A DNA stretch of 63,270 bases from positions 16,556 to 79,825 of the forward strand of contig CAZUTO010000006.1 in assembly GCA_964623085.1 (NCBI GenBank). Reading direction: 5' to 3'. Numbering within the stretch: the stretch's first letter is position 1; each line of letters begins with the position of its first letter. The DNA is from an uncultured Porticoccaceae bacterium. GTDB lineage: Bacteria > Pseudomonadota > Gammaproteobacteria > Pseudomonadales > GM7GCV1. The translations under genes and the position numbers were made by a program. The notes below the pieces were generated by a model that searched no databases, was not told where the DNA came from, and worked only from the letters and a program-made list of their open reading frames with translations. This document shows positions 4,495 to 7,869 of the stretch, one piece after another.

Positions 4495-7400
4495 ATGAAT
4501 ATTATCAAATACTTAGTTTTCAAATTAGCGCAAGCGAAACCGGCAAGGCGACTAATCTTACCTCTATTACTAGCCACTCTCGCCAGCAACTCTATCCAAG
4601 CAATTGGGCTCGGCACTATTCAGGTCGACTCTATTTTTGGCGAACCTTTTGCCGGGTCTGTAGAGGTATTCAATACAGAAGGCTACGACGAAAACTCTAT
4701 TATCGTGCGGATAGCATCAAGAGCAGTCCACGAGGAACTAGGTATCATTCGCGCGCCTTACCTTGATGAGATGCAAGTTGAACTCGTCTTTAACGAGCGA
4801 GGTACTGCGGAAATTCGCGTTACAGGGCAAACGCCTATTCAAGAGCCCTACATGGAGCTGGCATTGGAAATGAGTTGGCCGGAAGGTCGTATTGTCAGGG
4901 ATTACACCGTACTGCTGAACATGCCCTCGTCCACGGCACCGCTGCGCCAAGTTTTATCACCGGAACCAGTTACTCAGAAATCTATCTCCATTCCCCACTC
5001 TAGTGTCTACACACTCGAACGTGGAGACACTCTTTCACAAGTTGCCGAGCGGCTAGAAGGCAGAGAAGTGAGCCTCGCAGATGCAATAGAAACGCTGCGC
5101 GCGCACAACGCTAGCTTAGTTGAATCTCGGGGCACTTCAGGGCTACTAGTGGGCGATAAACTGCGTATCCCAGCAAAGGAAATTTTTTCGCTGCCCCCTG
5201 CTCCTGTGCAGGCCATCGCTGCGGCCAGCAGCACAACAAGTTCGTCCAATACACAAACGAATGTTGCTAGTGCAACCGCCGATGCATCGCGAGAAAACAC
5301 GATTGGTTCACCACTTGCTAATGCCGAAACCAGATTGCGTGCACTGGGCTATACCAATCTACAGTTACAAGCAAATGGAGAAACACCCAATCCAATTGTT
5401 GCATCTGGTGCCGCTGCAAATATCTTAGAACGACTCATTGCTGAACAAAGCGAAGACGATCGCTCCTACGGAACATCACAAATTGGCCGCTTAGCTGAAG
5501 GCCTAAACGAGGTTTCAAGTATATCCAGAGCCTTCCAAGAGCGGCTTGCGTTAGCAGGCGACACAGCTAACGAAAATGATTTGGCTACTGCGGCCGAACA
5601 GACTGCCGCCGTTCCATCTTTACCGGCTGAGACAATAGCGCAAATACCGTTAGAAGAAAGTGAGCGCCCACTATCAAACACACCTTCTTTGGCTGAAGTA
5701 GATACCGGAGTGGCCATACCCATCGCAGAGCCTTCAAAGGCATCTGGGGTTAATCCGTTATTCGGTTGGCTGCTAGGATTGCTGACTTTAGTCCTCATAT
5801 TTTGCGGTATTTGGGCAGCTAAAAAGCGAAGCAACGAAAAACTCGCGGCCGAGCAATCTCTTTTCGCACCTAAAGAAAAAGGGGATGCTGCCAACGATCT
5901 TCAAGCATCAGATACGCTAGCCGAATCACAAGAAGCTTCTTCTTCAAGTTCGGTCGCAGAAGAGACTGATGATGACGCTGCAAACACAGCGACGCCAAAT
6001 GAAGACCAAGAAATTGTCAACGAAGAACTTGAGGCTCCAGAAGCTGAAGAGATAACTCCAAAGGTTACCGCTTTCTACGATGAAGCAGTTCCAAACAATG
6101 AGGCCGGCTCAGACTCTGCAACATTCAAAAACGATCTAGATTCAGAGCTAGACGAGGAACTTAAACTCATCAGCGTCTTTGAGGAAAGTCTCGCATCTGA
6201 TGTGAGGCGCGCGCAGGTAAAAACGGAAGAAACCATAGCGCCTGAAGCCAGCTCGGTATCAAACGATGATGACTTTGAAGCCTTAGATCTGAGCTCAGCG
6301 CCAAGTGATGATGGCGACTCTGCAGCTACAGAATTCGGCTCGATGTCTAATGATGACGGCGATATATCTAGCGTAGAGTTGATCTCGGAAGAGGATGATG
6401 ACGAAGAAATGTTAGACTTTAACCTCAGCTCGCTAGAGACTGAAGATGAGTTAGACTTTGTGCTGGAAGACTCCGATCAGACTACTGCTGAAATACTAGA
6501 AATATCCCCTGCAGACGAAGCAGCAGAGCAGGTCCCGGCCGTGCAAACTCCTATCGCGGCAGCAAATAACTATAGCGGTTACGCAGAAGCCGCTGGTTTT
6601 AGTCATATTAATCCGGTCGAAGTAGTAGAGATCGTAAACAACAAACTGGTCGCTGCAAAAAATGCAGGTCAGGAATCAACGCTATTTTATATAGAGCTAG
6701 ATAACTACAACAATCTAGAGTCTGAGCTAGGTATTTTGCGTGCGGAACAACTAGCAGCAACCGTTGCTTCCAACATCTACGACCTGATTGAAAACCCAGT
6801 CACACTGAAACGTTTCCGCCAAGAGAGTTTTGTCCTTGTGCTCGCAGGTGGACAAAATCAGCAAAACCTTCAATTTGGAGTTGAGCTCGCAAAGGGGATT
6901 GCCGCGACACCTATGTCGGTGGACAACGAAACATACTTTGTGACGCTTAGTATCGGTATCGTCCCAGTAGCAAGTGGATTTTCAAACAGCGCCGAAATTA
7001 TCGAAATGGCCAAAGGCGTCGCACAGCAGTTTCAAGAGGAAAACAACGGAAACGGCGCTACTTTATGTGAATTGGATCCAGAGACCTCACACAATGACGC
7101 CTCAATTTTGCGTACTGGCCAAACGCTGTTAGAAAAAAATGCTTTTGTTGCATTTTATCAACCAGTCACAGCACTCAAAGGCGATCCACTGGAATTTTAC
7201 GAAGCGCGGCTGAAGGTTGCTGAGAATCACCAGCATAGCTCTATCCCAAGCGATCTCGTCGAGCGCCTAAGAAGCACTGATTTATCTACCGAGATCGATT
7301 GTGCCGCCGTGAACCAGGCTGTCAGCGAACTCAACGATTATGCGGGCCATCACGTTAGTACCCGCGTATTTATTGGTATCTCAGCGCGCACGGCGACGGA

Positions 7401-7869
7401 TAACGTTTTCAAGAACTGGCTTGAGAAAAACATCTTCTCGGGAAGCATCCAACCACAGCGTATTGTTTTTCAGTTCACTGAAGAGAGTGTCAGCAGATAC
7501 CTCAACGGGTTGATCGAGTTCCGTGACTATGTACATACGATGGGCTCAACTATTTGTATCTCAGAGGTAGATTTCGAGCACATCCCAGAAGATGCATTGG
7601 CGCGTCTGCACCCAGATTATGTGAAGCTAAGTATGGCACTCTCTTTGAGAGCCCAGAATGAAAGTGGCGACAATAGTGAAGGGCTGCAGCACTTAACCGA
7701 AGTACTGGAAAGAGCCCAACCACTCTGCGAGAAAACCATTGTCCCTGGCATATCACAGGCTAGAATCATTCCTACGCTATGGCCGCTGGCTGTTGACTAT
7801 ATTCAGGGCGACTATATTCAGCCGGCATCGCTGACGATGGATTACAACTTTGAGGAAGTTGTCCCCTAA
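4495..7869 (+). CDS. FimV/HubP-like polar landmark protein fused to a degenerate FimX-like GGDEF-EAL module
   Basis: Signal peptide, then IGLGTIQVDSIFGEPF...SWPEGRIVRDYTVLL (FimV N-domain), LysM (YTLERGDTLSQVA...LLVGDKLRIP), TM at about aa 422-441, acidic linker, GGDEF-fold (LFYIELDNY...RFRQESF...VTLSIGI), EAL-fold (FYQPV...YEARLK...IQGDY). Confidence 0.8.
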   Translation: MNIIKYLVFKLAQAKPARRLILPLLLATLASNSIQAIGLGTIQVDSIFGEPFAGSVEVFNTEGYDENSIIVRIASRAVHEELGIIRAPYLDEMQVELVFNERGTAEIRVTGQTPIQEPYMELALEMSWPEGRIVRDYTVLLNMPSSTAPLRQVLSPEPVTQKSISIPHSSVYTLERGDTLSQVAERLEGREVSLADAIETLRAHNASLVESRGTSGLLVGDKLRIPAKEIFSLPPAPVQAIAAASSTTSSSNTQTNVASATADASRENTIGSPLANAETRLRALGYTNLQLQANGETPNPIVASGAAANILERLIAEQSEDDRSYGTSQIGRLAEGLNEVSSISRAFQERLALAGDTANENDLATAAEQTAAVPSLPAETIAQIPLEESERPLSNTPSLAEVDTGVAIPIAEPSKASGVNPLFGWLLGLLTLVLIFCGIWAAKKRSNEKLAAEQSLFAPKEKGDAANDLQASDTLAESQEASSSSSVAEETDDDAANTATPNEDQEIVNEELEAPEAEEITPKVTAFYDEAVPNNEAGSDSATFKNDLDSELDEELKLISVFEESLASDVRRAQVKTEETIAPEASSVSNDDDFEALDLSSAPSDDGDSAATEFGSMSNDDGDISSVELISEEDDDEEMLDFNLSSLETEDELDFVLEDSDQTTAEILEISPADEAAEQVPAVQTPIAAANNYSGYAEAAGFSHINPVEVVEIVNNKLVAAKNAGQESTLFYIELDNYNNLESELGILRAEQLAATVASNIYDLIENPVTLKRFRQESFVLVLAGGQNQQNLQFGVELAKGIAATPMSVDNETYFVTLSIGIVPVASGFSNSAEIIEMAKGVAQQFQEENNGNGATLCELDPETSHNDASILRTGQTLLEKNAFVAFYQPVTALKGDPLEFYEARLKVAENHQHSSIPSDLVERLRSTDLSTEIDCAAVNQAVSELNDYAGHHVSTRVFIGISARTATDNVFKNWLEKNIFSGSIQPQRIVFQFTEESVSRYLNGLIEFRDYVHTMGSTICISEVDFEHIPEDALARLHPDYVKLSMALSLRAQNESGDNSEGLQHLTEVLERAQPLCEKTIVPGISQARIIPTLWPLAVDYIQGDYIQPASLTMDYNFEEVVP

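Follow-up and report, generated by a model that had tools for sequence, protein, structure and literature searches.

The closest described relatives of the protein reported here are FimX, a regulator of type IV pilus extension, and the FimV/HubP polar landmark proteins. In Pseudomonas, FimX and PilB are brought to the active pole by PilG, which is itself held by FimL and ChpA, with FimL held by FimV (excerpted text of PMC10519157), and in Xanthomonas citri PilB, PilZ and FimX form a polar complex (excerpted text of PMC8389850). The excerpted review PMC11656802 states that deletion of the REC domain mislocalises FimX, and presents as debated both the mode of PilB binding, direct in Pseudomonas or through a PilZ bridge in Xanthomonas, and the requirement for cyclic di-GMP (c-di-GMP). 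GGDEF proteins are also found at the FimV/HubP landmark, as PdeB with HubP in Shewanella and DgcP with FimV in P. aeruginosa (excerpted text of PMC10212136); these associations are non-covalent, run through the C-terminal region of FimV and involve active enzymes. LapD, in turn, is a c-di-GMP receptor of the inner membrane that combines a periplasmic domain with a degenerate, inactive GGDEF-EAL module. Here we describe a gene at positions 4495-7869 (+ strand) of a 63,270-nucleotide stretch, referred to as the window, from contig CAZUTO010000006.1 of an uncultured Porticoccaceae bacterium (assembly GCA_964623085.1). Its product, referred to as the fusion protein, joins parts of the FimV and FimX types in one polypeptide, and differs from the PdeB-HubP and DgcP-FimV pairs in that the link is covalent, the FimV C-terminal domain is missing and the catalytic module is degenerate. 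Full-text searches of open-access papers and bioRxiv found no description of a covalent FimV-GGDEF-EAL architecture, which agrees with a prior reading of this DNA by a model that had only the letters (the sequence-only reading) and did not recognise the architecture as described.

As judged from its sequence, the gene encodes a bitopic inner-membrane protein with a FimV-type periplasmic half and a FimX-type cytoplasmic end. The open reading frame (ORF), 4495..7869 including the stop codon, codes for 1124 aa without an internal stop, and all of the parts listed below lie on the + strand. A signal peptide (aa 1-36; 4495..4602) was recognised as a hydrophobic core followed by SIQA and IG, between which cleavage would take place, and its region appeared as a helix at residues 15-33, ahead of the immunoglobulin (Ig)-like domain, when aa 1-445 were modelled with AlphaFold 2 (AF2) from an alignment of 43 rows (mean predicted local distance difference test score, pLDDT, of 74). 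The Ig-like FimV_N domain (aa 38-144; 4606..4926) matched Pfam PF25800 with an E-value of 3.8e-28 and 98 bits against a cut-off of 27, and was modelled as a beta sandwich across residues 38-140 with pLDDT values of 94-97. It is followed by a LysM-like domain (aa 167-232; 4993..5190), a periplasmic helical segment (aa 271-357; 5305..5565) and a single transmembrane (TM) helix (aa 421-444; 5755..5826), identified by sequence and AF2 and succeeded by KKR on the cytoplasmic side. The helical segment, modelled as helices at 273-357 with pLDDT of 55-85, matched no Pfam family and was the best-conserved periplasmic part of the protein, with 62-87% identity to four close orthologues.

The LysM-like domain was the least clear of these assignments. 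Its Pfam match at residues 172-226 was weak (E 0.19; 12.2 bits, under the cut-off of 20.9), and a Foldseek search with the N-terminal model returned weak Ig-like matches alone (best E 1.1e-3), with neither LysM nor FimV structures among them. AF2 nonetheless placed a strand-helix-helix-strand unit at 168-226 with pLDDT of 90-95, a FimV-family profile that includes the fusion protein matched solved LysM proteins at the corresponding positions (LytE, E 1.1e-6), and the profile of the fused family aligned with canonical FimVs as far as about residue 232. The canonical FimV of the same genome likewise fell slightly below the LysM cut-off, at 19.9 bits. The domain is a probable peptidoglycan binder by this combination of profile and modelled fold.

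Beyond the membrane lies an acidic cytoplasmic linker (aa 445-690; 5827..6564) that is poorly conserved apart from a few short islands (PFYDE; LDEELKLIS.FEE; ILDF.L..LE in the alignment). Over residues 446-700 it holds 73 D+E and 9 K+R among 255 residues, making it 29% acidic, and its identity to the orthologues was 31-43%. The C-terminal module consists of a degenerate GGDEF domain (aa 715-850; 6637..7044) and a degenerate FimX-type EAL domain (aa 876-1124; 7120..7866), matched by Pfam at 715-848 (E 3.1e-10; 40.5 bits against a cut-off of 23.8) and at 876-1110 (E 9.5e-30; 104 bits against 31.3), respectively. In AF2 the GGDEF domain reached pLDDT of about 90-98, and the GGDEF-EAL part as a whole a mean of 92 with a predicted template modelling score (pTM) of 0.74. 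Neither a HAMP domain nor REC-like and PAS domains were found in the fusion protein by Pfam. The TPR or FimV C-terminal domain was also not found, as it was missing from the Pfam scan and its structure 4MAL from the 15 Protein Data Bank (PDB) matches; canonical FimVs, by contrast, matched 4MAL with an E-value of 1e-25 and carried TPR_19. This layout is largely the one proposed by the sequence-only reading, which had named an uninterrupted 1124-aa ORF, a signal peptide, a FimV-like N-terminus, a long D/E-rich linker, tandem GGDEF- and EAL-fold domains and a missing FimV C-terminal domain. The LysM domain that it had also named is a weak call by the Pfam score, with some support from modelled fold and profile, and its single TM helix was correctly called with a span of about 422-441 that is here corrected to 421-444.

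The fusion protein shares with FimV/HubP the signal peptide, FimV_N, a probable LysM-like domain, periplasmic coiled region, single TM helix and acidic cytoplasmic region, and differs from them in lacking the C-terminal TPR-like domain or any TPR and in lying outside the asd-truA slot. With FimX (P. aeruginosa PA4959; Xanthomonas) it shares a degenerate GGDEF-EAL module with Q-x-x-E in place of E-x-x-E, a TLW helix and an MDY.F tail; unlike FimX, it lacks REC-like and PAS domains, is membrane-tethered rather than soluble and has most of the c-di-GMP contacts replaced. Strict membership of either family fails, for want of the C-terminal domain in the one case and of REC-PAS and most contacts in the other, and the protein is clearly built from both.

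The C-terminal module belongs, by sequence affinity, to the FimX lineage rather than to generic GGDEF-EAL proteins. A phmmer search of its 435 residues against all PDB chains ranked FimX at the top (7LKQ, 9.5e-31; 4J40, 1e-29) with five more FimX EAL sequences matching, one of them deposited without the FimX name, and the best non-FimX chain was MorA at E 2.9e-9. Substitutions specific to FimX recur in the module: Q993 stands where ExxE has its first E, and the TLW helix is present along with MDY.F at the C-terminus. The segments IVFQFTE, IVPGISQARIIPTLW, YIQGDYIQP and MDYNF, on which the sequence-only reading had based its assignment of the tail to the FimX subfamily, are present and align with the corresponding FimX segments, in support of that assignment. 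Foldseek gave template modelling (TM) scores of 0.88-0.90 to FimX EAL structures at 25% identity, but ranked generic GGDEF-EAL tandems first, so that the assignment rests on sequence and not on fold. Identity to solved FimX chains and to the FimX of the same genome is only 24-26%. LapD was also among the fold matches of the module, and in ESM Atlas generic GGDEF-EAL clusters alone were returned, with scores of 0.86-0.87 that are under the level for more than a lead.

Phylogenetic analysis placed the module in the same lineage. A maximum likelihood tree with 54 rows split the fused and FimX-like sequences (51 rows) from the three generic GGDEF-EAL proteins of the genome with a Shimodaira-Hasegawa-like approximate likelihood ratio test (SH-aLRT) value of 99, and every fused row sat in a 25-row clade (SH-aLRT 99) together with the genome's own FimX. 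The tree was built by a quick method, with long branches flagged for P0032 and two outgroup rows, and the label 'FimX-like' on the 42 comparison rows derives from Pfam scans for P0033 and P0034 and from length and alignment for the others. The phylogenetic comparison that had been proposed as a check thus returned a module nested among FimX-like sequences.

An artefactual origin, in which an assembly chimera or a gene-call error joined a fimV fragment with a fimX fragment, was considered because the host genome (2.07 Mb; 98.8% complete) is a draft of metagenomic type in 46 contigs and its canonical fimV holds a run of N. Logan contigs of two runs spanned the whole ORF (3600-7900 and 3774-7900) with 0 differences and 0 gaps, which is limited support as both runs are two samples of one study and possibly the source of this DNA. 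Stronger evidence came from four other database clusters (P0003-P0006), 44-58% identical to the fusion protein, which are colinear with it through the linker, and the same architecture was seen in four distant clusters. The gene cannot be a mis-join of the genome's own fimV and fimX, because its halves are only 33% identical to that FimV and 26% to that FimX. An artefact is thus highly improbable, and the concern over a chimeric join at the linker that accompanied the first reading was answered by the gap-free contigs and the colinear relatives.

When a profile was run against 1.84 billion representatives, 14,484 matches were obtained at E<=1e-3, of which 150 were listed; 17 of these were Pfam-scanned and the remaining 133 judged by length and matched region. 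Among the matches listed, P0004 and P0006 were close and P0032, P0044, P0053 and P0057 distant (21-25% identity) members with FimV_N, GGDEF and EAL. In total at least eight full-length fused members were found, ranging from 21 to 61% identity to the fusion protein and identical in architecture throughout. None of nine other long FimV-like matches, all canonical, carried GGDEF or EAL by Pfam. The fusion was found in none of the ten other genomes of the same GTDB family among the 11 searched; six of the ten matched both halves at separate places, three matched one half and one matched none. A scan of genome contigs of species representatives yielded 46 pattern matches that were checked and none confirmed, with two 8-residue patterns that see close relatives only. 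A scan of JGI metagenome contigs, again with short patterns, gave two loci and yielded no confirmed further member, the one locus examined (L019) being a canonical asd-fimV-truA locus.

The N-terminal parts of the eight fused members formed one clade separate from 36 canonical FimV-like rows (SH-aLRT 99), and the best tree likewise grouped their C-terminal parts together, although weakly (SH-aLRT 10). Between close orthologues the domain blocks were 50-87% identical, in comparison to 14-43% for the linkers. These results are consistent with one ancient fusion event, rare and since retained, as far as the sequences can tell.

Both domains of the C-terminal module were judged catalytically dead because their active-site and metal residues are replaced. 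The GGDEF active-site motif GG[DE]EF is RQESF (residues 775-779), and the EAL motif is EAR. At the metal and catalytic positions of the EAL domain, with the canonical residue set numbered as in the RocR literature, the fusion protein has G961 for the N of NxS, Q993 for the first E of ExxE, S1023/E1024 for the DD of DDFG and S1087 for the E of EGVE. A protein with such a sequence would not be expected to act as a cyclase or a phosphodiesterase.

The contacts through which FimX of P. aeruginosa (PaFimX) holds c-di-GMP are given as L477, R479, D507, E654 and Y673, together with F652 stacking on guanine (excerpted text of PMC3527489). In our alignment the positions of L477, R479, D507, F652, E654 and Y673 are occupied by R905, K907, D935, G1085, S1087 and D1106, so that only one of the six named contacts (D507 = D935) is identical. 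Among the 42 FimX-like rows, R479 was R in 35, E654 was E in 38 and D507 was D in all 42. Not one of the fused rows had R at the R479 position; the fusion protein carries K there and the other fused members carry I or E. E654 was retained among fused rows in P0032 only.

These data bear on the possibility that the protein is a c-di-GMP receptor anchored in the wall, in which the EAL domain binds c-di-GMP and switches polar pilus assembly like canonical FimX. The EAL fold is intact (AF2 pLDDT >90) and D935, Q889/P890, E903, E996, K1044 and Q1104 are retained. R905, which is invariant in close orthologues, might replace R479 as the phosphate contact. X. citri FimX, crystallised with c-di-GMP (4FOJ/4FOU), also departs from PaFimX at two of these positions in our alignment, where D stands for Y673 and A for E654. 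Set against this are the replacements R479 to K, E654 to S and of the stacking F652 to G, and the distant fused members P0044, P0053 and P0057, in which D507 and even the glutamate of the EAL motif are gone. Binding of c-di-GMP by the EAL domain may therefore be possible rather than probable, and a receptor of this kind would be a minority interpretation. Because most FimX contact residues are replaced, c-di-GMP sensing by the fusion protein appears doubtful, and the label 'c-di-GMP effector' given by the sequence-only reading is unsupported as stated.

A possible FimX-type function through PilZ was addressed by structure prediction. When the EAL domain (aa 854-1124) was modelled in complex with the host PilZ, the interface score (ipSAE) was 0.62 (runs of 0.62, 0.63 and 0.57), in comparison to 0.01 for the best of three controls. 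Of 80 solved complexes, 58 attain this mark, as do 2 of 110 mismatched pairs, a calibration that is only rough for this pair, as the model used its own alignments of 50 rows (EAL) and 30 rows (PilZ, 29 order-level genomes). The runs agreed in at least 95% of contacts, with a partner pLDDT of at least 72, and the confident contacts fell in four places: a loop (892-900), the TLW helix (1088-1096), the residue pair 1107-1108 and the tail at the C-terminus (1117-1123). In contacting PilZ the EAL domain of the fusion protein would thus resemble FimX, and the model supports, without proving, a docking function of the FimX type that has been kept.

Genes for the predicted partners are present in the host genome, where fimV at asd/truA, fimX, pilB and pilZ, all suggested earlier as genes to look for, were found separately from the fusion gene. 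A canonical fimV with its C-terminal domain lies between leuB-asd and truA-trpF, and a separate FimX of 687 aa with REC-like, PAS and EAL matches is encoded on contig C3:101621-103684 (locus L062). REC-like and PAS domains are present in this FimX and in P0033, P0034 and P0127. The pilB gene exceeded the NCBIfam threshold and is followed directly by ORFs that resemble pilC and pilD in size and position (labels based on size), two adjacent PilT-type ATPase matches (putative pilT/U) were found on contig 18, and a single pilZ of 115 aa occurs in the gene order tmk-holB-pilZ-tatD. A second extension ATPase, TfpB (NF053534), scored 866.6 bits, above its cut-off of 850 (C11:20203-21960; L015 1483-3237, - strand). 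FimV-like proteins, FimX-like proteins and extension motors thus each number two in this genome, and a one-to-one pairing can be hypothesised.

One methyl-accepting chemotaxis protein (MCP) and its CheW were also found, plus a large CheA-like frame, with zero matches to the PilJ N-domain family in the host genome. These genes are probably of the Pil-Chp type, linked to pili, and probably represent the only chemosensory system. A flagellar role like that of HubP is unlikely for the fusion protein, because flagellin was not found and FlhF had no match above its cut-off in this 98.8%-complete genome.

Two observations concern the canonical copies themselves. The canonical fimV (contig C2:115971-118777; locus L063 2972-5775) is read as two ORFs of 565 and 344 aa split by a run of N that falls inside its acidic repeat region, and the split probably reflects a gap in the assembly or masking rather than a broken gene. 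The host's canonical FimX has G at the PaFimX R479 position (EVLLG) and C at the F652 position, and its GGDEF domain was not found by Pfam at E<=0.1; by these residues it is itself a divergent FimX.

We interpret the fusion protein as a catalytically dead adaptor, anchored in the wall, for the type IV pilus extension motor, a reading to which we give about even credence. The FimV_N domain, LysM-like domain and helical segment would form a wall-anchoring periplasmic half, and the acidic tether of about 250 residues after the TM helix would provide a long flexible leash for a FimX-type docking surface. This surface would be held where FimV-type anchors sit, presumably at the pole, and through PilZ it may recruit or stabilise PilB or the second motor TfpB, with a presumed effect on piliation. 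A fixed tether is suggested because the fusion drops the linking parts of the recruitment chain, namely the FimV C-terminal domain and the REC-PAS part of FimX, so that the dynamic FimV-FimL-PilG-FimX route of Pseudomonas would be bypassed.

Several points weigh against this interpretation, among them the LysM score under the Pfam cut-off and the Foldseek ranking given above. The c-di-GMP contacts are mostly replaced, and should FimX depend on c-di-GMP for its function, which is reported for P. aeruginosa, the module could behave differently from FimX. The X. citri FimX residues W445, M487, M488 and A493 are named as critical in the excerpted review PMC11656802; the predicted PilZ contacts exclude approximately H914/S915, the equivalents of M487/M488 and the only two of the four that were mapped, and because these positions are missing from the contacts the predicted binding mode is not taken as confirmed. 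The same excerpted review reports that the EAL domain of P. aeruginosa FimX showed no PilZ binding by isothermal titration calorimetry. Solved PilZ-FimX complexes exist (4F48, 4FOU, 7LKQ), and the score of the model may reflect likeness to these. Furthermore, the organism is known from metagenome-type assemblies only, and with canonical FimV and FimX already in the genome the fusion could serve another machine, for example a type II secretion system.

The presence of that canonical FimV, complete with its C-terminal domain, also raises an alternative in which the fusion protein is an accessory subunit of the canonical hub, its GGDEF domain docking on the FimV C-terminal domain to give mixed assemblies with non-pilus functions. 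Such docking has a precedent in the GGDEF domains of PdeB and DgcP, which bind HubP and FimV directly (excerpted texts of PMC10212136 and PMC7033161). Since the module groups with FimX and not with proteins of the PdeB or DgcP type, and since the fusion protein has an anchor of its own that makes recruitment by FimV redundant, we regard this alternative as very unlikely.

The adaptor reading also extends to the gene immediately upstream (3657..4490, + strand), which encodes a secreted or lipoprotein-like protein of 277 aa with TPR repeats (TPR_16 and TPR_19 at 35-92) and an NTF2-like Cds6_C domain (168-272; E 2.5e-11) by Pfam. The two genes are probably an operon, because the upstream gene ends (stop codon 4488-4490) 4 nt ahead of the fusion ATG at 4495. 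A database gene model of 685 aa from a eukaryote-oriented source (P0179) joins orthologues of both proteins, with 51% identity to the upstream protein over aa 1-245 and 51% to the fusion protein over aa 498-936. This model probably derives from bacterial sequence within a eukaryote data set, where an intron that does not exist was annotated, and because it splices both orthologues together the simplest reading of its sequence is that they would be adjacent and co-oriented in another organism too. Elsewhere in the host genome (contig C17:12551-15715; L061 1052-4215), a three-gene cluster encodes a TPR+Cds6_C protein, a YkuD L,D-transpeptidase with Cds6_C and an M14 carboxypeptidase; the first two genes are paralogous to the one preceding the fusion gene, and relatives have similar loci in tandem. 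As Cds6_C paralogues cluster with these enzymes, the upstream protein may be a peptidoglycan-associated periplasmic partner, to which the comparison of gene neighbourhoods points, and it probably works alongside the fusion protein. A literature search on Cds6 returned unrelated papers only.

A periplasmic partner encoded 4 nt upstream, and apparently adjacent elsewhere too, could alternatively be interpreted in terms of a switch across the envelope similar to LapD, where a cytoplasmic signal makes the periplasmic part capture or release the TPR/NTF2-like protein or a peptidoglycan enzyme. The conservation of the helical block, which exceeds that of any other periplasmic region, would be in line with such a contact, as would the position of Cds6_C paralogues in a peptidoglycan-remodelling cluster (YkuD L,D-transpeptidase, M14 peptidase) and the LapD GGDEF-EAL structure among the fold matches. 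LapD, however, couples through HAMP and an S-helix, whereas the fusion protein has neither HAMP nor signalling helix; the poorly conserved acidic linker of about 250 residues that separates the TM helix from the GGDEF domain makes transmembrane conformational coupling implausible. The module is also FimX-like by sequence, with LapD reaching only E 1.7e-7, far below its cut-off in NCBIfam, and we consider a LapD-like switch unlikely.

The adaptor reading can be taken a step further, to a hard-wired polarity device in which a FimX module that no longer senses c-di-GMP serves as a pure scaffold, permanently tethered to a peptidoglycan landmark, docking PilZ with PilB or TfpB independently of Pil-Chp and sited by the TPR/NTF2-like partner. 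This more specific proposal is tentative, and we hold it less probable than the adaptor function in general. If true, it would provide Rosetta-stone evidence for FimV and FimX in one physical complex, and it would mean that the core job of FimX is motor placement and not the reading of a nucleotide signal. A covalent hybrid of FimV and FimX kept over deep divergence represents independent evolutionary evidence that both act in one place. As a simplified system, without REC and PAS and perhaps without nucleotide sensing, the fusion may also reveal which functions of FimX survive fixed localisation. It further links an anchor of the FimV type with a conserved periplasmic TPR/NTF2 partner whose paralogues occur among peptidoglycan-remodelling genes, and is relevant to research on both pilus polarity and c-di-GMP effectors.

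A scan for promoters and terminators remained at the level of shuffled sequence (5 compared with a shuffled mean of 5.1, and 3 compared with 5.4, respectively), and with regard to expression, no RNA run holding the gene was listed in the four runs found. Downstream of the fusion gene and convergent with it, positions 7888-16653 (- strand) hold an ordinary aerobic-respiration cluster. Its SCO1/SenC gene was confirmed by family scan, and the translations of the other genes read as putative haem O synthase, haem A synthase, a SURF1-like protein, and cytochrome c oxidase subunit III, assembly protein, and subunits I and II.

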